64,000 nucleotides of DNA. It comes from Escherichia phage vB_EcoM-ZQ1. The stretch is taken from sequence record MW650886.1. The stretch is one strand, 5' to 3'. Positions 2,013 to 63,975 of the stretch are shown here, one piece after another. Position 1 is the stretch's first letter; the number at the start of each line of letters is the position of its first letter. The notes beneath the pieces are model-generated. The model was not told the origin of the DNA. It saw nothing but the letters and a program-made list of their open reading frames with translations, and ran no database searches. A program made the position numbers and the translations under genes.

Positions 2013-5000
2013 AACTTACCTAGTGCGATAGCGACGTACGGCGACGTTGTATTCCCGACAACGTTATACAGCCCAATCGGCGTTCGGTCTAATGATGGTA
2101 GCCTTGCCCCTGCAACACCACCAACACAGCCCAAAGGTAATGGGGTACTAAAGTTTAAATTAAGACGCTCAAAGATGGAGAAAGCCAGCGTTGGCACTAC
2201 CGGCACCAGTTCAATTATTTGAGGTCTTGTGCTAGCCGGAATGGAAACATTGTAAAACGATGCGAATGTTGTCCCGTCAGCCCTTTTCAATAACGGAGTC
2301 ACCGTCATGCCTGACTCCACTGGACCAATCATCAGGAACAGCCTGGTGATACCTGACAATTCAGTATTAACGCTGAAATACATATTACTGCTACTGGAGG
2401 TAGAGTTCACTCCAGAGAGCGAACCGAAACACGGAGTATCTTTTATGATACTTTGCAACCAATTAGCTTTAAAATTAGTTACCCTTTGTGTTCTGTTTTC
2501 CTGGGAGATAAAGAAATTCTGCCGGTGGATGCTGGTTACAACGTTCTCACCACTTCCGGAGTCTGGGACCTCATCAAACGATATTAACTCGTACACCCCA
2601 TCGGACACTTTCTTAGCCGACGCGTAGCAGCTGAAATAATCACCTTGATACACTATCTGTGATGTACTGAATGTGCTTAGATCGTAGGTAATGGTCAAGC
2701 TTACATTGCTGCGGTACATCGGAGTCACAGGACGTGAAGTAGTACCGGTAATTACCAGTGGGTCATCGAAGTCAGTGTACGCCTCAATTCGCGGGCCAGC
2801 GTACACATAATTGCTAACCAGTATTGACCAGCCGTTCGCCCCGGTTAGGTCATTTGTTTTACAAATAGCGATACCACCTGCGGAGCTACCAGTATTTGCT
2901 CTGATTACAGCAATCATTTGCCCGCGATAGTATCCAAGACAGGTTTCATTAATCAGGCTCCGCCCTGGAAAATCACTTATCTGAAAACTTTTAGTAACTG
3001 ACCATGTAGTACTTGCATTCAGAAGTACATCTGATGAAGTTACAAGCTGAACTTCTGTACCTGTTATACTGTAACGAGAAATAATAAGTTTGCCATCCGG
3101 TGTTGTTAATACGTTACCCCACTGATAATAATCATCCGTTGTTACGATGTCAGATTTGCTTGTAAATGCACCAGAGTTATTGAGATCTACGTACCCTACA
3201 ATAGTTTTTTTATAGGTATCTGCGGCGACGTCATGCAGCGTAAAGGCGATAATTAACTGATTACCTGGGTTGCTAACCGAAATGCTTGGCTCTTTTGCCG
3301 CTATACCCGCAGGTGGCACATATTCCCATATAACAGAAGCACTCCCGTCCTTGAGAATTTCTGCGATGCAGGCACTGTGCTTACCTGTTGCCTGATCGAT
3401 GTGTGCTGGCGATCGACGGAAACATAAAAGATTACGACCATTCCAGAATACGGTGTTACCAAATCCGTCATACTGTACCGTGGTATCTGTGTCTTTTAAT
3501 GACGTGAGGGTTGAAACGGCGGTTTTTAATGATGACATTGATTCTTTGGAAGTCACATCAACTGATGAATCCAATATAGATATTTCGTTATATATTGTAT
3601 CGATATTCTCCTGCACAGTTTTCCCATTACTGGAACCTGTAATCTGGGCACCATTATCTGATAATAAATCACTTCTTAAAGAAGCATCACCAACGCTAAC
3701 CCACGCACCAAGACCAGTACCACCAGATGCTTCAGGGGTTGAGCCAGATGGGACAGTTTTTGGAAACTCCCCTTCCCAGCGGTATTTACCTGTTGTATGG
3801 GTAAGTAATTCATTTTTAACATTAAGTGTAGCACCAGAATCAAATGTCCCGGACAATGTGACGTACTCTTCACGAGATACAGCCAATTCCCCAAGATCTA
3901 CAGAACCCGCTGAATGCACCAGTATAGCGGAAGAACTAAGACTGACAGCAGTAGTACCAGGGACAATATCAGCAGGCAAGGGATAAGCCCTTTGCGTCTC
4001 CTTGTCATAAATAACTTTATACCCACTTAACGCAGCACCAACACTAAAATAAACGACCTCTGTATCTTTAACATTGGCTACACGAGCCACTTCCCGCAAA
4101 GTATAATCAATTTGATTATAGATGTTTGGTGTTCCATTGATAATTACAACAACTTCATCCTCTGGTTCCAGTTCTTGCGCCAGAGTGATTTTACTGGTTA
4201 ATGGATCGAATGTGAATCCCAGATTTTTATACTGGCGACTTCCGTTTATATCAATGGCCGGAACATCATCAACAACGACGTCCAACGTGATTTCGGTTTC
4301 ACCACCAATCGCTGAACCCCCATTATAGACCCAAGTAATCGTAGAAGAACTAGAACCACCGCCATTACCCAATTGAATAGGAGTATATTCAATCACCTGA
4401 AGTTCTGTGTTGGCTGGCAAAGAAGGACTGAAAGTGATTACATTCCCATCTAGTGAATATTTGGATTCCGCAAGACGTTTCCCATCAGCATACACGTCCA
4501 CGATTGTTGGTGGAGTATTGAGAGCGACAGAACTTGTTTCAGACGCCAAAATTTTTGTAAAGATTTCACGACTGTAGACACGACCTTGGCCAAGACCGAC
4601 GCCGGATGTGATAACCCAACCTTGTTCAGGTCCAGACCAAGTGAACGTTGCTGATACGTTATCAGTTGTTATAGCCATGTCTTCAGTGGAGCCATACAAA
4701 TTATTTCCAGAAGGAGACACGGTCAATGGGTAAGTGGCAAATTTCCCATAAGCATCACAAATAGTAACGGAATCCCCAATACGCGTAGGGGAAGGGAGAA
4801 CCACTGTAGATGCCCCTGTGGTATTATTAATGAGATAGCCTCGCCCTTCAGTGAGCGTTGCCGTAGAGGCATGCGGAAGGACTTCCCAGCGGATACCACC
4901 GCCACCCAGCGGCAACCATCCACCATTTTCATAGAAGCCCTCAAATTCGTCGGAGTCGGCATTGTAGCGAACGGAAGACGGGAGTCCTGTGCTGGCATTA

Positions 5001-30631: not shown

Positions 30632-33388
30632 ATGAAAATGCGCAAGTCCGAGCACTTTATCCGCTCGTCGTCTTCCATTCAGGGGCAGGCGTTCAACGTG
30701 AAGATGAACGATAAGATGTTTGAGACTCTGTTCTCATCATTGTATCGTTACAAAGAGGCTGCAGCCCTGCGCGAAACCGTCTGTAACGCCATCGACTCTC
30801 ATGGCATGCGTGATCGTATGCACCGTATGATAGCATCCCACTACGTGCCTCTCACTCCGCCTCCTGCCCGCCATAGCAAATACCTTGCACCGAAGGGTAA
30901 GCAGGTTGTTGTGCATCTACCTGATGACTTTGAGCCATGGCTGGAAATCCGTGATTACGGTATCGGTCTGCCACTTGAGAAGATCATTGGTGAGCCTATC
31001 CCAGCACAGGAAGATGAGGTGCTGCTGGAAGGCAATATGGTCGTGAAGGAAGACGAGATCCCTGACTCAGCTGAGGTCATCGGTGTGCCTGCGTTCTATA
31101 ATGGTGGTCTAGTGTTCCGTCGCGAAGATGGTGAAATCATTCGTACGCCTGGGTTGTATACCACTCTCTTCCACAGTACGAAGGAAGAAGATGATGATCA
31201 GATTGGGGCATTCGGTCTTGGCTCCAAATCACCATTTGCGGTATCGGATTCGTTCACTGTGGAAAGCCGCATGGACGGTAAACTCCATCGCTTCCTGATG
31301 TACCTGAATGCCAAGCGCATCCCGACTGTTGATCTGATCACCAAAGATCTTGAAACCCGTGATCCTAAGCCGGAAGACACCGATGAGTTCAACGGCATGA
31401 CGGTGAAGATCCCGGTGAAGAACGCTCGCTTCTCCGCATTCTCTGATGAGCTGGTTCGCCTTGGTCGTGTTATGCGCCCTGAACAACGTCCAATTGTTGA
31501 GAACGCTTCATACCGCTTCAGCTGGGAAGATATCAGTTATGATTTTAAGGTCAACAACACGTACATCCAGCCGAAAGGCCAGGGGAACACCCATTATGCT
31601 GTAATGGGTGGCGTGTCGTACCCGATTGACCTGAATCAGCTCGACCCAGACACTTCCTCTATCATGAGTAAGTTTCCATCGTCCTACACGTTCTTCGAAC
31701 TTGGCTCGCTGAACGTACCACCGTCGCGTGAAGACCTTTCATATGACGAATTCACGCGTGAGACGCTCTCTGAGGAGTTTAAAGAGACCGCCAATGCAAT
31801 CTTGAAAGAAAAGATGCGTGACCTGGAGCTGGCGTGTAAGCGCGGTCCTCTTGCCCTGTATATGGAGAAGGTAAAACTGAGTGAAATGTTCGGCAGTGGG
31901 TTCCGCAAGATGGTTGAAAAGGAATACCCGGCAGACAAGCGCTTTCATGATTCATATTACCGTTACCCGCTGCCTGTTGAGATTGATCGCGATTATGACC
32001 ATACCGCGCCGTTCAATGAATTGTCATCGCCGTTCTCTATGGAGATCTTCTATGACTGGGGTGAGTCCAGTAATTTGACCATTTCAGAAATCCAGAAGTG
32101 GATTGATCGCGGCCAGCATGTTACTGTGGTGATCGAAGATAGTGTTCGTGCTCGTAACCTGAAGATCAAGCAGCTGAAAGATACAGGGACGATAGTCATC
32201 GTGGCCAAGCCGAACACATCCTATGTCACCAAGCGCAACCAATCTAAGGACAACCCTGCGTTCAAGAATTCTCAGGCTCTCTATGATTTCTTTGAAACTT
32301 GGATTGGTAAAGAAGAAACGACGGTTGATTATCTGTGCTTCGCTGACAAGTTCGTCGATTGGCTGAGTGCGGTGCTGGAGCCTGCCGAAGTCAAGTTCAT
32401 GAACGAACTGACGTATGTCACACCCCCGGTCACCAAAGACCCTGGCCTATTTCCGTTCACGCGCAGCAACTTCGACATATACCAGTCTGAAGAACTGACG
32501 GGCGACCAGATCTCAGATATCATCAACAAGGGCGAGCGCATCGTCTATATTGAGGTGTCTGGTTATGAGTGTATCCATCAGGTGATGGGCAGAACGTTGA
32601 CCGCAGCTGCGGCGCGAGGCATCCGCGAGTCTCTCTACAAACATGCCGTTCACGCGGATGAAGATGGCAAGCCGGTGTATATCAGCGATATGTTGAACGT
32701 TCACAACCGAATCTTCTTGGCTCGCCGTAAATCCGTGCCAATGATGAAGAAGTTCCCAGAGGTCTTCATACCGATTGATGAGATTCTGAAGATTATGTTG
32801 GAGAATGCCAGGCCGATGCTGGAACGCCACAACGCGATACGGTTGCTGAAATCTCATCAGAGGCTTCACCTTGGTTCTAATCGCCTGAAATACGGGTGTC
32901 ATCTGGTAAAACAGGCGTTCGGTGAAGGGGAAGACGGGCGTTATAATCAGCTGGTTAATCGGTATAACCAAATGCTGGATTATGTTGACGATATCTTGGA
33001 CGAACAAACTATCCGCCATTATCAGGCGATGTCGAAGCGTAATGTTTCTCTTCATGAGGTTCGCCGCTTCAAACATTTCCAGGATACGATCAGCACTCTG
33101 AATCTGAATCTGTATACCAATGAGCGGGATGAAAGGGTGTTCCGCGCAGAACAACGCATGTTGCAAATCTTCAGTCACGCATCGGAAGTTCTGAGGATTC
33201 ATGGATTCGTGCCGTTTGATTTACTGAAGACGCCAACACGGAACGCGAAAAAGGCGAACCGCATGACCGTAGAACGTCATCGTGTTGTCCGGTTCTTGAA
33301 AGAGAATTACAAACCAAGCGCCCTGAACCCGATTGAAAATTCTTCGGATTACTTGGACGTTATTTCAAATTCCATCATCAGGGCATAA
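30632..33388 (+). CDS. rIIA: rIIA protein (GHKL-type ATPase domain)
   Basis: N-terminal motifs SLYRYKEAAALRETVCNAIDSH and IGAFGLGSKSPFAVSDSFTV match the rIIA / GHKL ATPase signature. Confidence 0.75.
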   Translation: MKMRKSEHFIRSSSSIQGQAFNVKMNDKMFETLFSSLYRYKEAAALRETVCNAIDSHGMRDRMHRMIASHYVPLTPPPARHSKYLAPKGKQVVVHLPDDFEPWLEIRDYGIGLPLEKIIGEPIPAQEDEVLLEGNMVVKEDEIPDSAEVIGVPAFYNGGLVFRREDGEIIRTPGLYTTLFHSTKEEDDDQIGAFGLGSKSPFAVSDSFTVESRMDGKLHRFLMYLNAKRIPTVDLITKDLETRDPKPEDTDEFNGMTVKIPVKNARFSAFSDELVRLGRVMRPEQRPIVENASYRFSWEDISYDFKVNNTYIQPKGQGNTHYAVMGGVSYPIDLNQLDPDTSSIMSKFPSSYTFFELGSLNVPPSREDLSYDEFTRETLSEEFKETANAILKEKMRDLELACKRGPLALYMEKVKLSEMFGSGFRKMVEKEYPADKRFHDSYYRYPLPVEIDRDYDHTAPFNELSSPFSMEIFYDWGESSNLTISEIQKWIDRGQHVTVVIEDSVRARNLKIKQLKDTGTIVIVAKPNTSYVTKRNQSKDNPAFKNSQALYDFFETWIGKEETTVDYLCFADKFVDWLSAVLEPAEVKFMNELTYVTPPVTKDPGLFPFTRSNFDIYQSEELTGDQISDIINKGERIVYIEVSGYECIHQVMGRTLTAAAARGIRESLYKHAVHADEDGKPVYISDMLNVHNRIFLARRKSVPMMKKFPEVFIPIDEILKIMLENARPMLERHNAIRLLKSHQRLHLGSNRLKYGCHLVKQAFGEGEDGRYNQLVNRYNQMLDYVDDILDEQTIRHYQAMSKRNVSLHEVRRFKHFQDTISTLNLNLYTNERDERVFRAEQRMLQIFSHASEVLRIHGFVPFDLLKTPTRNAKKANRMTVERHRVVRFLKENYKPSALNPIENSSDYLDVISNSIIRA

Positions 33389-33419
33389 TAGTCCTGTTAA
33401 CCAACGTGGGAACTACAAG

Positions 33420-34985
33420 ATGAACAAGATTGACGAAAAGATCCTGAAGCATTTGAAGGAAGGCAAAAGCCAGAGCGCAATTGCTACTCTGTTGGGCATA
33501 CCCCGCTCGACTGTACAACGTGTTTCCGACAAGGAAATCGGTGTTGACCCTACTTCGCTGAAATCTCTGACAACAGATCAGATCGCCAATATCCAAAGGG
33601 ATTCGGCGGCAGGTAATGTCAGCAATGCATTCTTGGCCAAGGTGTACGGTGTGTCCGCCAAGACCATTGCTCGCGCTCTGTTGGTCCGCATTACCGAGGA
33701 GGAAAACAAGGTAACTGTGATCTCTCCTATCAAGCCGGAAGAGCAGGAAGTATTCGAGGTCCAACCGGGCGGCACGGCCAAAGACAAAGATGGCACAGAA
33801 TGGTATGTTGGGGCATATCTGCCGAACCACAACAAGTATCTGTGTCTCACTAACGACGACAATTTCAAAGGGGCTTTCTTTGAAAAGTCTGAATTGACTC
33901 CTGTGGAAGGTGATAGTCGTGCTTTCGATGTTGAAGATATCGGCAAGATGGCAGAAATTTCTGTGGCGCTGTCAGAAGGTGCGGACAAAGTCCCGGGCAA
34001 CGTTGAAATCAGCGTTGTGGTTGACGGGGAAACCTATCCTATCCGTGGATCCTTGGATGCCCGTCGCCGTGTTGGTTACTTTGATGGCATCCTCGGTCGC
34101 ACCCTGCGCCTGGCTCTGTCTTCTGTAGAATTCGCCGTCGCTGTCAAAGACGTTGAAGAAGTGGCTGATGATAAGAAGACCAAGCAGGACTTCGGCGCGA
34201 AAGACCTGGACGTGTTCCTGAACGAACACCAGATCCTGATTCTTCCTGACAGCGTTGTTATCGCGATTGACGGCAAGCCGGAAACGATCACCACTTCACA
34301 CCCGGCCTATGACCGCATCGTACAGGCGATCAAAGACAAAGACGTGAAACTGGCATACTCGCTGATGCGCCCCCGTGAAGCCATCGCGAAGTACGCTGCT
34401 GGTCTAGTAGACGTGTCTGACAACCGTGTCCGCTGGTCCGGTCATGACATCACAGGCACATCCATCGCCAAGCGTGTACTGGCGCTGATGCTGAAGGGTG
34501 ACTTCCACAACCTGGACCGCATGGCGAAGTTTATGGACAAAATGTTCCAGAACCCGTCAGCTTCTCTGGTTCAGTCTGGGCGCATCTATGAGTTCATGGC
34601 GTACTCTGACATCGAAATTGACGACGACGGTGACATCATCCTCTACAAATCGGTGCGCGGCAACTACATGGACAAGCACAGCAACACGATCAGCAACGCC
34701 CCAGGCACTATCGTGCGGATGGCTCGCTCATTCGTGAACGACAACAACTCTGAACTGTGTTCATACGGTTTGCACGTTTGCTCCCTGGCCTATCTGAAAC
34801 AGTGCTTCGGTTCTGTTGGCCAGCGTGTCGTTCGCTGTAAGCTGAACCCGCGTGACATCGTGTCGGTCACCGATGATTTTGGTTCAAGCAAAATCCGCTG
34901 CTGTGAATACCTGGTGTTGGATGACTACACCGCTGAGTACAACCGCCAGCACAAGTCTATTGACGTGACAGGTCTGTACAAGTAA
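33420..34985 (+). CDS. rIIB: rIIB protein
   Basis: C-terminal region YKSVRGNYMDKHSNTISNAPG...CSYGLHVCSLAYLKQCFGSVGQRVVRCKLNPRDIVSV closely matches the conserved rIIB C-terminus; N-terminal HTH-like segment. Confidence 0.75.
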   Translation: MNKIDEKILKHLKEGKSQSAIATLLGIPRSTVQRVSDKEIGVDPTSLKSLTTDQIANIQRDSAAGNVSNAFLAKVYGVSAKTIARALLVRITEEENKVTVISPIKPEEQEVFEVQPGGTAKDKDGTEWYVGAYLPNHNKYLCLTNDDNFKGAFFEKSELTPVEGDSRAFDVEDIGKMAEISVALSEGADKVPGNVEISVVVDGETYPIRGSLDARRRVGYFDGILGRTLRLALSSVEFAVAVKDVEEVADDKKTKQDFGAKDLDVFLNEHQILILPDSVVIAIDGKPETITTSHPAYDRIVQAIKDKDVKLAYSLMRPREAIAKYAAGLVDVSDNRVRWSGHDITGTSIAKRVLALMLKGDFHNLDRMAKFMDKMFQNPSASLVQSGRIYEFMAYSDIEIDDDGDIILYKSVRGNYMDKHSNTISNAPGTIVRMARSFVNDNNSELCSYGLHVCSLAYLKQCFGSVGQRVVRCKLNPRDIVSVTDDFGSSKIRCCEYLVLDDYTAEYNRQHKSIDVTGLYK

Positions 34986-54098: not shown

Positions 54099-54758
54099 TC
54101 AGACTCCGTGGGCTTGTATTAGCTCACGGAGTCTCTGTTTTGAATATGTGGTATCCTCATCCGGAACCACAGCATTCGTCTTCCTGAGCAAGAACGCCTC
54201 TGAGTTCCAGTAGATGTCATCACGCAGAATCGTATCGTATAGATGAATGAAACCAACGATCTTGTTCAGACCGACAAGGAACCAAATCGGGAACTTCTTG
54301 ATGATGATGTCTGTCAGCAACGGTGGATGACCTGTACCCGTCCCCTTGATGTACTCAATGAAGGTGCAGTTGCGCTCCCTTATGGCAGGGATCATCTCCC
54401 GCTCGAACTCCTCAAGGAAGTTATATGTAAAGTTCTCGTACAGCTTACGGTATTCATCATAATTGGCCTGAGCCTGGCGTGTAAGCAATGTCGTCACCCA
54501 GGTCTTGGGTGATTTGATGAAGTTGGCAATGATGTAGTTCTCTACCACTTCACCCTGTGATGACTCGAACCGACGGGCAAGGCGAGCAAACTGTTTGCAC
54601 ACGGCCTCCTTCGCCAAGAACGTCTCGAACTTGTAATTCATCGGTCCATACAAGCTGTAATCGAAGTCCTTAGTGGTGAAGTGCAGCTTGATCGCCATGA
54701 AGACACAGTAAACGTTGAACGCCCGCTCGAACTCCATCTTCTGCCACTCTGTTAGCAT
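54099..54758 (-). CDS. Hypothetical protein
   Basis: 219-aa ORF. Confidence 0.45.
   Translation of the reverse strand: MLTEWQKMEFERAFNVYCVFMAIKLHFTTKDFDYSLYGPMNYKFETFLAKEAVCKQFARLARRFESSQGEVVENYIIANFIKSPKTWVTTLLTRQAQANYDEYRKLYENFTYNFLEEFEREMIPAIRERNCTFIEYIKGTGTGHPPLLTDIIIKKFPIWFLVGLNKIVGFIHLYDTILRDDIYWNSEAFLLRKTNAVVPDEDTTYSKQRLRELIQAHGV
54101..54141 (+). terminator. Intrinsic terminator after the late block
   Basis: 10-bp stem AGACTCCGTG / CACGGAGTCT followed by CTGTTTTG; overlaps the 3' end of the convergent minus-strand ORF. Confidence 0.55.
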
Positions 54759-55459: not shown

Positions 55460-56890
55460 TCACCCATTACCCTTCTCCAACAGGAATGCGATGTTTTCAA
55501 TGTACGCTTTCTGTATCGCATAGACTTCATCCAGTGTGTTGGCCACTTTCTTGTCAATGCGGACTTCTACAAGGCGAGGTAGGAACAAAGACTTCATCGC
55601 ATCATCTGTCTTATCCTGTACGCCATTGGAGAGCACTGCGGCGATTTTGCCAATGTAGTCGCCCTGGTTCTCCCACATATGGCGTCTCAGCTCATCTGAG
55701 ATCCCTGATACGCCAACAACAAGCAGGCTGTCGGAAGTTTTACAAATCAGTGAGCCAAAAGTCTTGGCGTGTTTGCCTTTCTTGTCGGCCTCGTTGAATC
55801 CCACGATTTCAAGGTCACACTCAACCTCCATCTTCAGCTTCAGACCTTCAGAAGAAGTACCATCTTCCCACGGCATGTCTGCGGCCTTACATATCGTGCC
55901 TTCTTCTTTGCGAGCCAGCGCGTCTTTGAAGTGGTCGACGGCTTCGGCAAATGAGTGAACAACACGAGTTTCTTGAACCTGAACCAGACCGTCGTCTTCA
56001 TCAAACAGTTGCTGGATGATATCGAAGCGGCGCTCATACGGGGTATCCACGCGTTGGGCGTTGAACCATTGTTCATACGGCACAACATCCCACACCCGGT
56101 AGATCACCCGATAACGATCTTCTAGGGGTTCTCCTGTCTGAATCACGCTGTTGAGTTTACCGTTACCGACAGCACGAGGCAGGATGGTATTCGACTTGAG
56201 GTCAACAACGAGAAGTTCACCATGGAACACACTCTCACCAATCCCCGTATCGTAGATCAGGTCTTTGAACACCAGTGAAAGGTTATCAACAGAACCACCT
56301 GCGATAAGGGAACCGGAGCGAGAGCGAATCTCAGGCTCTTTATTGTACCGACATATGATGTTGGCGAACATACCGTCTGACTTCAGCTGGCTGTAGACGC
56401 CACGCTTGAAGTCCATCTTCTTCAGCAGGTCAATTGTCATGTTGTCATAACGATGATACGGAAGAATGTTGATCAGGCGTCCAGTGCCTCCGGCGGCGTT
56501 GAATGCAGCGTTGATACCCTTCTCAGCGATACCCGCCTTGATATCACGGTCTAGGATCATCTGAATGAGTTCGTGGTATTGGGGATCCATCTTCAGGGCG
56601 ACAGAGGCCAACAGGGCATCAGCCTTTTGGCCACTGACAAGGCGCTGTGCCATCTGGTCGAGGACGTCATAGACTTCGCTGATGTCATCAGTCTTCTCAC
56701 GGACGAGCATGCGAGGGTACGCGCTGAGCTTCAACTCAGTCCGATAGAACGACGTCATTGGGTCATAGACATACTGCAGGAAGTCTGCCAAGTCTGGGTT
56801 GTTCTTGAATGCTTCGGTCAGCACGGCTTTCTTCGCATTGCTGCCTTTGGTTTCGCGAAGTCGGTGGACTGTTTCAAGGATAGGGATCAT
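55460..56890 (-). CDS. ATP-dependent DNA ligase (T4 gp30-like)
   Basis: Adenylation motif KSDGMFA (KxDG) and ligase-like C-terminal region; 476 aa. Confidence 0.75.
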   Translation of the reverse strand: MIPILETVHRLRETKGSNAKKAVLTEAFKNNPDLADFLQYVYDPMTSFYRTELKLSAYPRMLVREKTDDISEVYDVLDQMAQRLVSGQKADALLASVALKMDPQYHELIQMILDRDIKAGIAEKGINAAFNAAGGTGRLINILPYHRYDNMTIDLLKKMDFKRGVYSQLKSDGMFANIICRYNKEPEIRSRSGSLIAGGSVDNLSLVFKDLIYDTGIGESVFHGELLVVDLKSNTILPRAVGNGKLNSVIQTGEPLEDRYRVIYRVWDVVPYEQWFNAQRVDTPYERRFDIIQQLFDEDDGLVQVQETRVVHSFAEAVDHFKDALARKEEGTICKAADMPWEDGTSSEGLKLKMEVECDLEIVGFNEADKKGKHAKTFGSLICKTSDSLLVVGVSGISDELRRHMWENQGDYIGKIAAVLSNGVQDKTDDAMKSLFLPRLVEVRIDKKVANTLDEVYAIQKAYIENIAFLLEKGNG

Positions 56891-57004
56891 GTGGTGTCTC
56901 CAGGGTTATATGTGCTGCTATTATAACCCTGGGGACTTCAATAGATTATTGGTGGGTGTGGGATCTTGCTTAGCCGATAATGACCGCAAATGTTTCTGTA
57001 TCCA

Positions 57005-57565
57005 TCATGAACCCTCCGCCCAGACAAAGCCGTATTTGTTCAGTAGATCCACGGTTTCACCACGAGCGCGAGCCACGATAGATTCTACTGATTCTTCCAC
57101 CTCGAGTGGTGGGCAACCAGCCTTTTCGTACGTGTTAAGCAAGAGAGCAAGTTCTTTTACGAACTCTTCTTGTTCCTCTCCTCCAAAGAACCACATCCGC
57201 AGATCGTCGCGTTCCCCGTGCTTGTTCAGAGAAGCCATATTCACGTACACGTAATCGTTTTTCTGAACAACGTCATTTATCTCCGGCCAATGCAACCCAG
57301 TCATCGCATAATTGAAGAATTCCGAAGGGGTGACTTCATCCGACAAATAATACAAACGGAAGTCACCGCTGGGGCCATGTTTGCAAGTTCTATCCAGCAT
57401 TATTTTGTGGATGTCAACACGGTCTCGCTTCAAGACTTCCCGTTTCTTCAGTCGACCTCTCAGCCAGGCACTGCCAATACACAAAAGAACGAAAGCAGTA
57501 GCACCAGTGAGTATGTTGAAAGAATCAATAATGTTCATAAGATCCCCGAAGTGATAAAGGGGCAT
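57005..57565 (-). CDS. Membrane-anchored hypothetical protein
   Basis: 186 aa with N-terminal TM helix (ILTGATAFVLLCIGSAWL). Confidence 0.45.
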   Translation of the reverse strand: MPLYHFGDLMNIIDSFNILTGATAFVLLCIGSAWLRGRLKKREVLKRDRVDIHKIMLDRTCKHGPSGDFRLYYLSDEVTPSEFFNYAMTGLHWPEINDVVQKNDYVYVNMASLNKHGERDDLRMWFFGGEEQEEFVKELALLLNTYEKAGCPPLEVEESVESIVARARGETVDLLNKYGFVWAEGS

Positions 57566-57579
57566 AAGCCCCTCCGATG

Positions 57580-58188
57580 TTATTTGCTCAGGCTGGCGAG
57601 GTAGTTGTCGGCTTCGATAGACGACGGGCTGTTGGCGGAGTAGCTCGAATCAGCGATTTCGGTTTCGCGCAGGATGGCATCGATATCGATGGTGGTCATA
57701 CCAGCGGCATAATCGATATCTTCAGGGAGCACCAGACCCAGGTCGTTCGTCTCTTTCTGAACACGAACCAGCTCGAGATTGGACTTGACTTCGTCCAGTT
57801 TGTCACCCAGCTGGATGATCGCACCGTTCAGTTTGTCGCTGCTTGCTTCGATGTCCTTCACCTGAGCCAACAGGGCTTCACCGATACGGCGGCGATGCAG
57901 AATAATCAGGGCGTCGGCGCGGGTTGGTGTGACACCACGAGCGATGGCGTCCTTCAGAACTTCTTCGCGCTTGGCGGCTTCACTCAGGTTCTGTTCTGCG
58001 GTCTTCTTCAGTTTGACGCCGTTGCGGACGTTGGTGACACGGGCTTCCTCCAGGCGACGGATTTCGTCAGACAGCTTGCGAGCAGCCAGGTTCAGGCGCT
58101 TTTCGGTGTCGGTCAGTTTATCCAGACCTGCGGTGACGTTGGCTTCAACAGTGGTGAAGATGCGTTTCAGTAAGTTTTTCAGTGACAT
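57580..58188 (-). CDS. PspA / IM30-family (ESCRT-III-like) coiled-coil protein
   Basis: N-terminus LKRIFTTVEANVTAGLDKLTDTEKRLNLAARKLSDEI parallels the PspA N-terminal helix; heptad-rich throughout; 202 aa. Confidence 0.5.
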   Translation of the reverse strand: MSLKNLLKRIFTTVEANVTAGLDKLTDTEKRLNLAARKLSDEIRRLEEARVTNVRNGVKLKKTAEQNLSEAAKREEVLKDAIARGVTPTRADALIILHRRRIGEALLAQVKDIEASSDKLNGAIIQLGDKLDEVKSNLELVRVQKETNDLGLVLPEDIDYAAGMTTIDIDAILRETEIADSSYSANSPSSIEADNYLASLSK

Positions 58189-58205
58189 CAGTGTGTAGTC
58201 CTCAG

Positions 58206-58547
58206 TTATTTCTTCGGGGGTTCAATTGAGGTGAAAGAATCCTTCCAACTCTTGAATTTTTCAACTAGGGCTTCTTCACCCAGCTCGTCATTTGACACGC
58301 TGTGAATATAGGCGAATGCTCCATAGCCGGATCCTGGCATAGCCTTGCAGATGCGCAGACTGACCAAAGAATCTCCTACGGAAACAAGATAGTGGTCACG
58401 ACGATTGTTCAGGGCATAGTGGTTGTCATGAAACTTGTCGATAACAACACAGTTCTGAGGTTCGACGTCAATCGGTAGCCCGTTGGCTTCGGATCCACCG
58501 CGCCCAAGCACGCAGCCTGGGAATAATGTTTCTACGAGTGTGGTCAT
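58206..58547 (-). CDS. Hypothetical protein
   Basis: 113-aa ORF. Confidence 0.45.
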   Translation of the reverse strand: MTTLVETLFPGCVLGRGGSEANGLPIDVEPQNCVVIDKFHDNHYALNNRRDHYLVSVGDSLVSLRICKAMPGSGYGAFAYIHSVSNDELGEEALVEKFKSWKDSFTSIEPPKK

Positions 58548-58776
58548 GGTCTGTTCCTTCTGTAAGTTCCCATGTATTATATGGGTGAATCGTTTAATGA
58601 ATTATTTGTTATGGAAACCCAGAGCCTTGTAGACTTCTTCACGATTTTAATTTCGGCCTGAGCCTCTGTGTGATTAATCCGGCGCTTGTGTTGTCGGGCG
58701 TCAATGGCATCGATTAGACAACGGATCTCAGCGCATCAGGGGCTTACCCAACAGCCAGTTGAAATACTCGCGCATG

Positions 58777-58989
58777 TCACTTCCTCATCAGTGAGAGCAG
58801 ATTGACCGTAGCCGGGCGCGCATCAGGGGCGTAGAAGACGTCCTGAGAGTGCCTCTTACAGCACGGGCAATCCTTCGTGGCGATTACACAGGGAGCCTTG
58901 CTTACGGCAAATCCGGCGGCTTCGGCTTCCTTCACAGTGGTGAATGGCATGTAAGCACTTGTGCCCTGCCCTCCGCATGAACATTCCAT
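58777..58989 (-). CDS. Small Cys-rich protein
   Basis: 70 aa with CSCGG and CPCC motifs. Confidence 0.35.
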   Translation of the reverse strand: MECSCGGQGTSAYMPFTTVKEAEAAGFAVSKAPCVIATKDCPCCKRHSQDVFYAPDARPATVNLLSLMRK

Positions 58990-59101
58990 CAGCGTTTCCT
59001 CTTAAAGGGGATGACCAGGGCTATGATGAGAAGCATAGCTGTAATCATCCCACATGCTATCAGACCAAAGGCGAACGACTTCAGAACAAACTCAATCAAA
59101 T

Positions 59102-60328
59102 TCATAACTTCCTCAATTTGGCTCTGGTGACCTGAGTTTGTTTAACGCCGTTGTACTCAGTCAGTTCTTTGACACGACCACGGATGATCATATCGCCCTG
59201 CAAGAACTCTGTATCCATATAAGAGGTCTTCCAGGTAATTGTATTGCCTTCTGCTGTTTTGAAAGTAAACAGGTAGCTATCACCATATTCATTGGAGAAG
59301 AGGAAGGTGCGCTTGTCGAACCTGACTTGCACTTCCAGCATTTCACCGACTTCTCCCACCCATTTGTTCTCCGCCTTGCGGTCAGTACGAGGACGATGGA
59401 TGTAATCGTAATACTTCTTGGCACCCCAGCGGACTGTGTTGTTATCCTTGATGAGGTGATAGCCGGGTTCACACATGCGTTTCAGGCGAACATTGAACTC
59501 ATTAGATTCGGACAGCGCACTGATGAAGAGCTTCATATGGTACATTTCCGACTCGGCGTCTTCACGGTATTCGTGTGCCTTGTTTACGAAATACTCTTCA
59601 TCGGAACCTGCTTTTGGTTTCTGGTGAGACCGGACATAGCCCAGTACTTTGTCAAACAGTTCAGACTTGATATCCACGCCTGCCAGCATCACCTGGAAGC
59701 ATGCGCGCAGGTAACTGTGGGTGTCGGTGAAGCGCTCATTTTGGACGCGATATATACCCTCTGGGTCGTCCTCGTCTGGCATGAAGAACTCTTGGATTTC
59801 CAGATAGTAAGACATAATCGCGTCAAGGGACTTCTGATGAGGCACATAATGATGCATACAGGTGCTACCAATCAGCATCTGGGTATGCGTTTCCTCATTT
59901 TCAATCACATACGTGTTCTTGCGACGGATGGCTAGATTGCAATGCTGACACCAAGAGACGTTCTCTGTCTCGAAGCGACGGATGAAGTCAGGATTGATGT
60001 TGTCGGACAGGCGGTTAAGAATAACCTTTGGATATTCGTGATTGAACTGACCGATGATCTTCCAGCCACCATAAGAGATGGGGCGGTCAATGCCTTCGCC
60101 TTCGAGAGTGACAGGTTTCCACCAGTGAGTAAGGATCTCACCAGTGAAGTCGCGGGTGTGGGTTTTGAAGGGTTCACCATAAGTCACAGTCGGAAACGGA
60201 ACACCCAACCTTTCGGCAGTGCGCTCGAGCTTCTTCAGTCGCTCAACTACCAACCCTTCATTGTCGATCGGAATATTGAATGTTTTGACGTTCATTTCCA
60301 GCCTCATGATGTAGTTGTAACTCTTCAA
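59102..60328 (-). CDS. Hypothetical protein (in the gene-order position of a T4-type primase, but no Toprim motif seen)
   Basis: 408 aa; CQHC...CMHH zinc-binding-like cluster. Confidence 0.45.
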   Translation of the reverse strand: MKSYNYIMRLEMNVKTFNIPIDNEGLVVERLKKLERTAERLGVPFPTVTYGEPFKTHTRDFTGEILTHWWKPVTLEGEGIDRPISYGGWKIIGQFNHEYPKVILNRLSDNINPDFIRRFETENVSWCQHCNLAIRRKNTYVIENEETHTQMLIGSTCMHHYVPHQKSLDAIMSYYLEIQEFFMPDEDDPEGIYRVQNERFTDTHSYLRACFQVMLAGVDIKSELFDKVLGYVRSHQKPKAGSDEEYFVNKAHEYREDAESEMYHMKLFISALSESNEFNVRLKRMCEPGYHLIKDNNTVRWGAKKYYDYIHRPRTDRKAENKWVGEVGEMLEVQVRFDKRTFLFSNEYGDSYLFTFKTAEGNTITWKTSYMDTEFLQGDMIIRGRVKELTEYNGVKQTQVTRAKLRKL

Positions 60329-61151: not shown

Positions 61152-62576
61152 CTAGAATTTCCAATTATTGACTGTTTGGGCTTTCTGCTCATCGCTGGCA
61201 GCAGCTCCGGACTTGTTGAGGTCATGTTTGATGTGTACGTTTTCGACATATTTGGCCTCAGCCTCAGTCAGGTCCTTCTTAACTTCATTCCAGTCCAGGT
61301 CAAACAGGATCTGTTTGTCTTGGTCCATACCAAACAGGAATGATTTCAGCTTCTGCTTGTTGGCATAACGGTTCTTGAGTATTGAGGCTCGGGCTTTCTT
61401 GACCGCCGCCAGTTCGTCGGGAGCATAGAATGCCATGATGAAGTCGGCCACCTTCGGAATACCGATAGCATCTGCCAAATCACTGATTCCACCATCAGTG
61501 CTATTCTGATTCTCACGATTGAACTGCATACCAGTCCATACAGGGACATCAAACTCAAATCCCAGCGCACGAAACTCACGAGCCACAGACGTGTAATAGA
61601 CGTTCGTGTTCTGCATCAGGTGGGCAGGCAGGCGCGAGGAAGCAGCTTCGCCAAGATAGTCAATAACGATAACATCAGGAGCACGACCAGTTGCCTGGAT
61701 GTACTCAAGGATATCGCGGCGGAATAAACCCGTGTGTCCAGCACCGGAAGGATATTCCTTGATGACGATATCACCCTTGGGCGCACCATCTTGGCGACTG
61801 CGGAGCTTCTCTATCGTTGCAATATACTCGTGCCTTGTGAGTTTCTCTAAAGACTCAAAGTCGCGACGCATGATACGGGCATCAAGACGGTGTCGCCAGA
61901 CGTTCTCGGCCACTTCAAGGGTGAAGACAAAGACGTTCAGCCCCTGCTCCGAGTACCCTGCGGTCAGGTCAATCAGCGTTGTGGTCTTACCTGCGTTGAT
62001 CGCGCCTGTTACGATGTTCAGTGTCTTCTTACCAACGCCACCACGTGTCGCCTTATTGAATATCTCAACTGCGAACGGGATCTTGGCCTCGTTGGAGTTC
62101 ATGTGGTCATACTGCTCTGCCGCCATCTCCCAATAGATGTGACCGAGGTATGAATCAAACCGGATCGCCAGGGCTTCCTGCAACATGGTCGGGATGTTGT
62201 TCATCTCGTCCTTGCGCTTCTCGTCACCGTAGATGTTGACGGCAGTCTTGATTGCGTTGTGTACGGCCTTTTGCCGCGCCCAAGCCTCGGTTTCCTTCGC
62301 CAGCCACTCTTCATTGAAGGTGTTGTCGTTGATGTTCTCCAGGGCAGATACCGCCTGGTCAAACACATATTCGTTCAGCTTTGTCCGTTCAAGAATTATA
62401 GATAGTGCTTCGACAGACGGGCGGGCATTGTACTCTGAGGTATAACTGTCAATCAGACCAAAGATGACCTTTTCGCCTTCGTTGTCAAAATAATCGGCTT
62501 TCAGGTACGGCAGGATCTTTCTTTGGTAATCTTCATTGTAAATCAACTGTGAAAGCACGACAGATTCGAGTAACAT
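61152..62576 (-). CDS. Replicative DNA helicase (DnaB-like; T4 gp41 equivalent)
   Basis: Walker A TGAINAGKTT; DnaB-type N-terminal domain; 474 aa. Confidence 0.8.
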   Translation of the reverse strand: MLLESVVLSQLIYNEDYQRKILPYLKADYFDNEGEKVIFGLIDSYTSEYNARPSVEALSIILERTKLNEYVFDQAVSALENINDNTFNEEWLAKETEAWARQKAVHNAIKTAVNIYGDEKRKDEMNNIPTMLQEALAIRFDSYLGHIYWEMAAEQYDHMNSNEAKIPFAVEIFNKATRGGVGKKTLNIVTGAINAGKTTTLIDLTAGYSEQGLNVFVFTLEVAENVWRHRLDARIMRRDFESLEKLTRHEYIATIEKLRSRQDGAPKGDIVIKEYPSGAGHTGLFRRDILEYIQATGRAPDVIVIDYLGEAASSRLPAHLMQNTNVYYTSVAREFRALGFEFDVPVWTGMQFNRENQNSTDGGISDLADAIGIPKVADFIMAFYAPDELAAVKKARASILKNRYANKQKLKSFLFGMDQDKQILFDLDWNEVKKDLTEAEAKYVENVHIKHDLNKSGAAASDEQKAQTVNNWKF

Positions 62577-62582
62577 TGGCCA

Positions 62583-62912
62583 CTACCCCACCAAAAATTT
62601 ATTATATTCCTGAGCATTACGCTGCATGAGGTCTACAAGGATATCCCCTGACACCTCAGTGAACAAGTCATTTTCTTTCAAATTCACAAACATCAGACGC
62701 AATGGTTTCTTCAATATATCAGTCACGAAAGACAGGCGGGGTTCGCCGTCCACTTCGTTGATGGCCACCTTGCCGAACCTGAATTGAACACCACGGAATT
62801 TGCCAGAAGTGATCTTGATGATCGCCAGCTGATCAGCACCAGGGTCGATGATTGTGTAGTTATTGGGGGAGTCTCCTCCCCCTCCACTGTTATTCGCTTG
62901 TGTTAATAACAT
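62583..62912 (-). CDS. Hypothetical protein (in the position of T4 gene 40 between uvsX and the helicase gene)
   Basis: 109 aa from the internal ATG; track ORF extends into uvsX. Confidence 0.35.
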   Translation of the reverse strand: MLLTQANNSGGGGDSPNNYTIIDPGADQLAIIKITSGKFRGVQFRFGKVAINEVDGEPRLSFVTDILKKPLRLMFVNLKENDLFTEVSGDILVDLMQRNAQEYNKFLVG

Positions 62913-63975
62913 GGTCCATTTGCTCCAGCATGTTAGCAGGCATAACAGTACCGTTAGAAACACCGAACATTTTCTTCACGTCATCGGCGAAGTTGACATT
63001 CTCCAGCAGCGGATACCAGAAATCATCATCCATCTGACGCTTCTGATATTTCTTTTCCTTCTCAGGATCGAAACCACCCTTGGTTGTACGCACATACCAA
63101 CCGGAAGACGGCATATCAACATAACCCAGAGCACGAGCGATCTCAAGCAGGCCGCTCCAGCGATCAATACCGCCGTTGTACAGTACCGTCACAGGGAGCT
63201 TGGCTTTCTCTTTGACATGGCGACCTTTCATGATGCTTATGTTGAAGTTCCAGCCCAGCAGATCTTTGTCTTCCTTCACCTGAGAACGGGTGATAAACCA
63301 GATCAAGTTGGAGGATAAGAAGCCCTGCTTGCCGCCTTTGATGTTAGGCTCGGCATATTGGTTGCCGATCTCATCGTAATAGGAGTTGATCCAAACACAC
63401 ACGAGATTTTTGCTATTGATTTCAGGAGTCATGACACGCCAGAAGCTGTTGAGGGCACGGGCGCGGGTCATGTCTTGAGTGTCGTTCCCTTTGATCGCAT
63501 CTTCAACTTCCTTGGTGGAGGGAAGTTGGCTGATAGAGTCGATGAAGATTATAACATGGTCGCCTTTCTTGACTTCCTGTAGGATCTGCAGCAAGCGGAT
63601 CTTGGTCTGTTCAACGTTGTCGATCGGTACGTACAGGACGCGGTCCATGTCAATGCCCATAGAGGTCCAGTAATCAGCGTTGGCACCCTTTTCCGAGTCA
63701 GCAAATACACAGATAGCATCAGGGAACTTGTCCATATAAGCCTTGACATCGACCAGGCCGAACATCGTTTTGAAGGTACGGGAATCACCCACCATCATCT
63801 TGATACCGGAGATCAGGCCGCCGTCAATACGCCCAGACCATGCGATATCGATCAGGGGAATACCAGTAGAACAGATGATAGACGGTTCCAGAGCGTCGGA
63901 TTTGGACAGCACTGAAGCCTGGTCATCGTGTTTCTTAGCAACCTTCAGCATGCGATCCATTAATGAACTGGCCAT
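62890..63975 (-). CDS. uvsX: UvsX recombinase (RecA-like)
   Basis: RecA-fold P-loop region MMVGDSRTFKTMFGL and conserved blocks HVIIFIDSISQL, DMTRARALNSFWRVMTP, GGIDRWSGLLEIARALGYV matching T4 UvsX. Confidence 0.8.
   Translation of the reverse strand: MASSLMDRMLKVAKKHDDQASVLSKSDALEPSIICSTGIPLIDIAWSGRIDGGLISGIKMMVGDSRTFKTMFGLVDVKAYMDKFPDAICVFADSEKGANADYWTSMGIDMDRVLYVPIDNVEQTKIRLLQILQEVKKGDHVIIFIDSISQLPSTKEVEDAIKGNDTQDMTRARALNSFWRVMTPEINSKNLVCVWINSYYDEIGNQYAEPNIKGGKQGFLSSNLIWFITRSQVKEDKDLLGWNFNISIMKGRHVKEKAKLPVTVLYNGGIDRWSGLLEIARALGYVDMPSSGWYVRTTKGGFDPEKEKKYQKRQMDDDFWYPLLENVNFADDVKKMFGVSNGTVMPANMLEQMDHVINTSE

Follow-up and report, generated by a model that had tools for sequence, protein, structure and literature searches.

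The window analysed here, a stretch of 64,000 nucleotides (nt) of Escherichia phage vB_EcoM-ZQ1 (sequence record MW650886.1), comes from an Agtrevirus of the Ackermannviridae with ~94% nt identity to the Shigella phages Ag3 and Gloob and the Salmonella phage SKML-39, and carries on its minus strand a gene (57580..58188) for a 202-amino-acid (aa) protein that, judged by sequence comparison, very probably belongs to the PspA/IM30/Vipp1 family as a divergent, phage-specific member of this branch of the ESCRT-III superfamily. The gene falls in phrog_1203, the family of T4 e.6, begins with ATG and has a Shine-Dalgarno sequence (GAGGA; 58199..58203, minus strand), seen directly in the sequence, 10 nt upstream of the start, bearing out the placement of this open reading frame (ORF) in an earlier note on the same DNA; an exact-sequence look-up identified the product as QVW27109.1 of vB_EcoM-ZQ1 (100% the same). 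The ORF is a genuine gene under strong purifying selection, and no chance ORF, because the ratio of nonsynonymous to synonymous substitution rates (dN/dS) is ~0.07 (0.065-0.072 against Ag3 and Gloob) and the gene is present in 233 phage records; against Vi01 the proportion of differing synonymous sites (pS) reaches 0.83, at which these sites are saturated, with a nonsynonymous proportion (pN) of 0.10. Among the 66 genes delimited within the window, it has the lowest effective number of codons (Nc, 33.7; median, 50.2) and the second-ranking frequency of optimal codons (Fop), a bias that suggests high expression, and the other genes at the top of the ranking encode a Hoc-like immunoglobulin (Ig)-domain structural protein, RIIB and UvsX. 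A plus-strand ORF of 198 aa (57577..58173) is not a gene and reflects the strong codon bias of the PspA-like gene, of which it is the antisense shadow. A scan of the minus strand near the gene for sigma-70 promoters and terminators returned nothing useful, with counts equal to the shuffle expectation.

The earlier note had proposed a PspA/IM30 homologue, and this was supported by comparisons with Pfam, with PDB sequences, with cellular PspA profiles and with solved structures. The match to PF04012 scores 43.1 bits (E 4.9e-11; residues 5-147 on profile positions 1-144 of 220), above the curated gathering cutoff of 33.9 bits, and most close homologs of the protein carry precomputed PF04012 matches. 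As a single sequence, the protein had no significant phmmer match in the PDB (E. coli PspA, 4WHE, at E 8.1), and a family profile was therefore required. Constructed from 17 Ackermannviridae and Straboviridae homologs and run against all PDB sequences, this profile found exclusively Vipp1/PspA chains as its best eight matches (8QBR, 6ZVR and 7O3W among them), the best at E 2.6e-5 with query positions 6-144 on chain positions 3-142, in register from the N-terminus, and the first unrelated match occurred at E 0.09. An exhaustive run of the same profile over 1.84 billion representative proteins recovered a tight family of ~50 clusters (193-209 aa), followed by cellular proteins with full-length PF04012 domains at E 5.6e-4 to 8.4e-4; as cellular homologs surface only at E ~1e-3, the phage family forms a distinct, tight subfamily. 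The profile-profile and structural comparisons with PspA and Vipp1 that the earlier note had suggested as a check were in agreement, with hhalign aligning the family to four cellular PspA at a probability of 98.0% (E 1.7e-13; 201 columns, full length) and pairing the C-terminal helices (…YLASL in the phage family, …ELEELR in cellular PspA), and with Foldseek (3Di and amino acids) placing Vipp1 structures from cryo-electron microscopy at all of ranks 1-7 in the PDB (probability 1.00; E 6e-3 to 3e-2; template modelling score ~0.5).

Reversed and shuffled controls were included because coiled coils invite compositional false positives. A hidden Markov model (HMM) of cellular PspA gave the window protein 45.3 bits, its reverse -0.7 bits and none of 312 reversed or shuffled family sequences more than 10.2 bits, a result that runs counter to the caveat in the earlier note of a generic coiled coil with no PspA-like fold. 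Reciprocally, the HMM of the phage family gives cellular PspA 34-43 bits and controls no more than 15.2 bits.

The AlphaFold (AF2) model of the protein has a mean predicted local distance difference test score (pLDDT) of 77, with helices at residues 3-83, 90-149 and 190-201 and short helices preceding the last; the first two form a long hairpin with block-mean pLDDT of 75-97 and values >85 over most of its length. At the N-terminus, residues 3-24 (58117..58182, minus strand) form alpha0, an amphipathic helix and the presumed membrane-binding element, with a hydrophobic moment of 0.47, a net charge of +2 and a hydrophobic face composed of L3, L6, L7, I10, F11, V14 and V18. The amphipathic and cationic nature of alpha0 is conserved across the phage family, and the helix is matched by residues 3-24 of Vipp1 and cellular PspA in the alignments, in keeping with the PspA-like N-terminal helix described previously for this ORF. 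The core, an ESCRT-III-type hairpin of alpha1 (residues 25-83) and alpha2/3 (residues 90-149) encoded at 57742..58116 (minus strand), is delimited from the AF2 model and is spanned by the Pfam, PDB and hhalign alignments; the alpha1 to alpha2/3 hairpin that characterizes PF04012 proteins is thus present in the predicted structure. The remaining residues, 150-202 (57583..57741, minus strand), constitute an acidic tail (net charge -8) with a conserved LGxxLPED hinge, short helices and the C-terminal helix 190-201. Across 52 distinct members, I43, L127, G151 of the hinge after alpha3 and Y196 of the C-terminal helix are nearly invariant, and L200 of the same helix is conserved as well. The Pfam and PDB alignments end at about residue 147, and hhalign maps the tail, with its pLDDT of 42-69, to cellular PspA columns 150-222 with a deletion of ~16 columns in the alpha4 region.

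Like PspA, IM30 and Vipp1 (PF04012; 6ZVR, 7O3W, 8QBR), the protein is predicted to combine an amphipathic N-terminal helix, a hairpin of two ~60-residue helices and a C-terminal helix, with a basic N-terminal half and an acidic tail, in 202 aa compared to the 216-257 aa of the four cellular PspA. It differs from them in its identity of ~20%, in being phage-borne without pspBC, pspF or lia neighbours, in an alpha4 region cut by ~16-20 residues, in a D-P hinge that is not kept and in the missing Vipp1 extension. A captured host pspA was considered and rejected: the protein shares the superfamily and the order of helices with E. coli PspA and B. subtilis LiaH but misses the cutoffs of both NCBIfam equivalogs, scoring 13.2 bits against TIGR02977 (cutoff, 242.95) and 13.5 bits against NF045984 (cutoff, 380), and scores so far under the cutoffs mean that the gene was not captured from a host recently. 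Cyanobacterial Vipp1 is also a better match than E. coli PspA (4WHE), which does not appear in the profile list, and searches of the surroundings by Pfam, NCBIfam and PHROG found no pspF/pspBC or liaIFSR neighbours, only phage genes, small membrane proteins, a ligase and a helicase. Vipp1 proper was rejected as well, as the protein stops at residue 202, directly after the PspA-type C-terminal helix, and has no C-terminal extension; the best Vipp1 chains (up to 277 aa) were aligned over residues 3-142 only. There was no match at E <= 1 to Snf7 (PF03357), the eukaryotic and archaeal ESCRT-III domain, to which two cellular PspA controls (P0098 and P0101) give weak matches, and CdvB2 appeared only at Foldseek E 0.19. 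No meaningful match to a defence system came from PADLOC.

The protein matches phrog_1203 along nearly its entire length (E 1.3e-66; residues 4-201 on 1-199 of 200), and the 233 phage records detected with it by tblastn include Agtrevirus, Kuttervirus, the Klebsiella Taipeivirus group, Miltonvirus and Nezavisimistyvirus, which represent all major Ackermannviridae lineages, together with T4-like Straboviridae at 24-30% identity. T4 e.6 itself (NP_049742.1 / P39224; 197 aa) aligns over its full length by BLASTP (E 7e-13; 196 residues; 23% identity), and its homolog in RB18, at 99% identity to T4 e.6, detects 1,107 phage records as a tblastn query; in RB18 the names e.6 and e.7 are exchanged compared with T4. 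T4 e.6 and the window protein have in common the PHROG, a C-terminal LGxxxxED...Y..L motif and the predicted helix layout, with an independent AlphaFold model of T4 e.6 predicting a separate alpha0 (3-22), a break, alpha1 (25-80), alpha2/3 (86-145), short helices and a C-terminal helix (186-196). They differ in genomic position, which is the e-tRNA region or the vicinity of nrdD/G in T4-like phages and the interval between helicase and ligase in the Ackermannviridae. The gene persists down to ~23% identity, and Escherichia, Klebsiella, Salmonella, Shigella, Serratia, Aeromonas and others are listed as hosts of the family. Singly, the T4-like members are too divergent to reach PF04012, and a profile restricted to the Straboviridae type matches cellular PspA in profile-profile comparison (probability 96.8%; E 3.1e-10; columns 2-149 on 1-150) and finds Vipp1 in the PDB only at non-significant E of 3-9. 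It is therefore the Ackermannviridae proteins that bridge the gap and reveal T4 e.6 to be related to PspA, since HMM-against-sequence searches miss the relationship and only profile-profile comparison sees it.

The most divergent members are also located on phage contigs, one of them a very divergent Ackermannviridae-like contig with the homolog between a DnaB-type helicase and a ligase, next to UvsX and a gene with an HMUDK_HMUD1 domain (PF18748), and another with the homolog beside nrdD and a radical-SAM gene, at the T4-like nrdG position. No cellular, non-phage context was found among the divergent phrog_1203 members inspected, and tblastn with two cellular PspA gave no match in the phage collection. 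From the sequence evidence, phrog_1203 is a phage-only subfamily, the T4 e.6 family, of which the window protein is the Ackermannviridae representative. A separate observation is a 229-aa 'PspA/IM30 family protein' of Acinetobacter phage vB_AbaM_ME3 (A0A172Q0S7 in BFVD; Foldseek E 9e-3), which may be an independent acquisition of a more canonical PspA by an unrelated large Acinetobacter phage.

The PspA identity of the family is not new, having already been recognised in databases and in one publication. In IMG and UniRef, members of the same 90%-identity cluster are named 'phage shock protein A', and the NCBI name for close relatives is 'PspA/IM30 family protein'. Gp_125 of Kuttervirus SeF3a, a sister-genus ortholog in the same PHROG (identity of Kuttervirus proteins to the window protein, 81-84%), has been proposed as a PspA-derived 'anti-Abi' protein, directed against abortive infection (Abi) (Int J Mol Sci 2022, PMC9409062), which is essentially the hypothesis of the earlier note that a phage PspA homologue could stabilise the host membrane or counter abortive infection. 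In that paper the gene singled out one of the Kuttervirus isolates, with 4 of the 15 Kuttervirus genomes in PHROGs carrying it, whereas here it is found throughout the Ackermannviridae and in the Straboviridae. What is added here is controlled homology evidence, non-orthology to host PspA, the breadth of the family, its connection to T4 e.6 and a syntenic membrane-protein neighbour. No statement linking T4 e.6 to PspA was found in the searched literature or in the major phage-shock-protein (PSP) and ESCRT surveys, and the large surveys of both kinds do not discuss phage members. Labels of homologs are inconsistent, including 'putative ABC-type phosphate transport system' in Gloob, 'tail completion protein' in two Klebsiella phages (UPM 2146 and XDRKpn-1), 'host specificity protein' for T4-like members in both UniRef and GenBank, 'e.6' in Ag3, 'PspA/IM30 family protein', 'phage shock protein A' and 'hypothetical protein', and the annotations of the family should be harmonised.

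The PspA-like gene is located outside the structural module, among replication and recombination genes on the minus strand that include those for UvsX (62890-63975), a gp41-type helicase (61152-62576), an ATP-dependent ligase (55460-56890) and, beyond the ligase and small membrane proteins, a helicase loader (54099-54758). Its position between helicase and ligase is kept throughout the Ackermannviridae and is different in the Straboviridae. On the upstream side, all on the minus strand, are a 113-aa phrog_5022 gene (58206..58547) that is 17 nt from the PspA-like start and syntenic in Ag3, Gloob and Vi01, a 38-aa single-transmembrane (TM) peptide of phrog_6569 (58989..59105) and a 408-aa phrog_2319 protein (59102-60328) conserved upstream of the PspA-like gene throughout the Ackermannviridae. 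Immediately downstream, at a distance of 14 nt and with its own GGAGG, is a gene for a bitopic membrane protein of phrog_11433 (57005..57565, minus strand). Both small neighbours noted previously as membrane-associated contain hydrophobic segments, with Kyte-Doolittle values of 1.88 (19-mer) for 57005..57565 and 2.74 for 58989..59105.

The product of 57005..57565 matches phrog_11433, 'membrane protein', at E 1.9e-77 in an alignment beginning at residue 10, and has one TM-like segment near its N-terminus with no lysine or arginine before it and eight after, from which an N-out/C-in topology with a cytoplasmic domain of ~150 aa is predicted. The start of this ORF is ambiguous, with either 57565 (GGAGG 5 nt upstream) or M10 at 57538 (GGGGA upstream) as a candidate; the PHROG alignment and the Vi01 ortholog start at M10, and the annotated products are shorter in Ag3 (180 aa) and Gloob (177 aa). 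The phrog_11433 gene is always directly downstream of the PspA-like gene in Agtrevirus, Kuttervirus and Klebsiella Taipeivirus (85 records), and its protein evolves much faster, with 33-35% identity between genera compared to 81-84% for the PspA-like protein. Cellular PspA homologs are usually paired with a membrane anchor such as PspB/C, LiaI or others (PMC11237479), and by this analogy the 57005..57565 protein is a reasonable candidate for a membrane partner of the PspA-like protein. Only this gene, in three genera, and the phrog_2319 gene, across the Ackermannviridae, are syntenic neighbours.

Several other features of the interval were observed. The phrog_2319 protein has 33-37% identity to proteins of Bue1 and 2050H1, was noted by the Ag3 annotators for its likeness to Vibrio phage KVP40.0369, and contains a C-x2-C ... 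C-x-H-H cluster of cysteine and histidine residues and a weak PADLOC match to PtuB (residues 119-177; E 0.005). Positions 58548-58776 hold a remnant of Ag3 orf00051 (Gloob gp43, 116 aa) with an internal deletion of 174 bp and indels of 1 bp and 2 bp, a probable pseudogene as it retains no minus-strand ORF of at least 30 aa. The gap between the ligase and membrane-protein genes (56891-57004) has zero ORFs in the window, three small single-TM ORFs in Ag3 (3047-3545 of the compared locus) and one ORF in Gloob (3047-3253), and looks like a hot spot for the gain and loss of tiny genes, several of them for membrane proteins, beside the PspA-like gene. At 58777-58989 (minus strand), a 70-aa cysteine-rich protein of phrog_4789 matches positions 1-67 of phrog_114, the long-form phage ATP-dependent DNA ligase family (E 0.004), and the ligase ORF at 55460-56890 matches phrog_114 positions 88-527; the small protein, whose Gloob counterpart is labelled 'putative DNA ligase', may be the N-terminal zinc-finger domain of the ligase, split off and now ~1.9 kb apart.

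The favoured explanation, to which somewhat better than even confidence is attached as a whole, is that the gene encodes a phage PspA-like protein of the T4 e.6 family that would protect the host inner membrane. A membrane-stabilising function of the PspA-like protein, taken by itself, is judged to fall a little short of an even call. In the proposed mechanism, an abundant, non-structural PspA-like protein would be made before late gene expression, would attach by alpha0 to the inner membrane of the host on its cytoplasmic side and would self-assemble via the hairpin and the C-terminal helix, as in PspA and Vipp1, limiting proton leak such that the infected cell could retain its proton-motive force (PMF) and ATP until programmed lysis. 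In this way the protein could buffer the stress of injected DNA or of superinfection, that of accumulating holin or of lysis inhibition, and the action of abortive-infection effectors that depolarise the membrane. The co-transcribed N-out/C-in protein encoded at 57005..57565 may recruit or anchor the PspA-like protein in Agtrevirus, Kuttervirus and Taipeivirus, as PspB/C or LiaI do for cellular homologs. More tentative is the view of a virus-encoded membrane protector or anti-Abi factor of the ESCRT-III superfamily, an abundant early or middle protein that polymerises on the inner membrane, is recruited by its fast-evolving bitopic neighbour in the Ackermannviridae and keeps the cell energised, blocking depolarising abortive infection and/or premature holin triggering. 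T4 e.6 has been assigned to the early class by RNA and to the middle class by protein, indicating that it was detected in infected cells, in a time-resolved omics study (PMC9697503, supplementary files 4 and 6). The family is retained from T4 to Vi01-like phages, and the window phage and T4 each encode rII together with an e.6/PspA-like protein, the RIIB homolog of the window (33333-34985, plus strand) matching phrog_3803 at E ~1e-280 and having high codon bias. As rII is the textbook antagonist of Rex, a system that collapses the PMF, the co-presence of rII and e.6 fits, circumstantially, a theme of defence through membrane energetics.

A number of observations weigh against membrane protection. 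Membrane binding, oligomerisation and PMF protection are drawn from homology, the partner role of the 57005..57565 protein is likewise inferred, and searches of the literature on phage PspA or T4 e.6 found no experimental work on any family member. Given that the alpha4 region lacks ~16-20 residues relative to PspA and that the model of the last 50 residues is of low confidence, polymer geometry may differ or be lost, and the phage family does not conserve the D-P hinge that follows alpha0 and is near-invariant among the cellular PspA. Structural comparison by geometry alone is non-specific, codon bias is an indirect proxy for expression, and an all-vs-all BLASTP of neighbours identified no neighbour common to the Ackermannviridae and the Straboviridae.

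An unlikely alternative is that the protein modulates the host Psp response, as a mimic of host PspA that binds PspF (the sigma-54 activator repressed by PspA) or PspB/C, or that co-polymerises with PspA, silencing or hijacking the envelope-stress response without itself protecting the membrane. The PspA-homologous residues 1-149 correspond to the fragment of PspA (residues 1-144) in the crystal structure 4WHE, which carries the PspF-binding determinants, and the listed hosts of the family belong to the gamma-proteobacteria, where PspF-ABC is known best. Against such a mimic, the protein is not near enterobacterial PspA, with a TIGR02977 score of 13.2 bits against 243 and with 4WHE at E 8.1 as a single-sequence match and missing from a profile list led by cyanobacterial Vipp1; further, so strong a codon bias suggests that the protein is abundant and stoichiometric and not a regulator, and the conservation of alpha0 and of the C-terminal helix speaks for membrane binding and assembly.

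More unlikely still is a coiled-coil scaffold that was repurposed and has no function at the membrane, serving for example in replication and recombination complexes or in virion assembly. The gene does sit amid replication and recombination genes, long helical hairpins are structurally promiscuous and the alpha4 region is truncated; Klebsiella phage records name it 'tail completion protein', and UniRef names T4-like members 'Host specificity protein'. These labels, however, contradict each other and the 'ABC-type phosphate transport system' label and are supported by no family model, the gene lies outside the structural module, T4 e.6 is transcribed early, and the amphipathic, cationic alpha0, an element specific to membrane binding, is conserved family-wide. 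That a compositional artefact of a generic coiled-coil protein explains the similarity to PspA is highly improbable and largely refuted, given the gap between the reversed or shuffled and the real scores, the register of every alignment from residue 3-6 of both proteins, the solely Vipp1/PspA top matches in the PDB, the passing of the PF04012 cutoff and the match of the Straboviridae-only subfamily to cellular PspA.

The significance of a membrane-protecting phage PspA is tempered by a homology already present in databases and one paper and by a gene that may be dispensable in the laboratory. PspA is a host membrane-repair protein, of which a phage-borne version would be a neat inversion, and because the family includes T4 e.6, its function is testable by genetics in the best-developed phage model. 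If PMF protection is indeed its role, the family would represent a new class of phage counter-measure against the many defence systems that kill through membrane depolarisation and a new lysis-timing factor.
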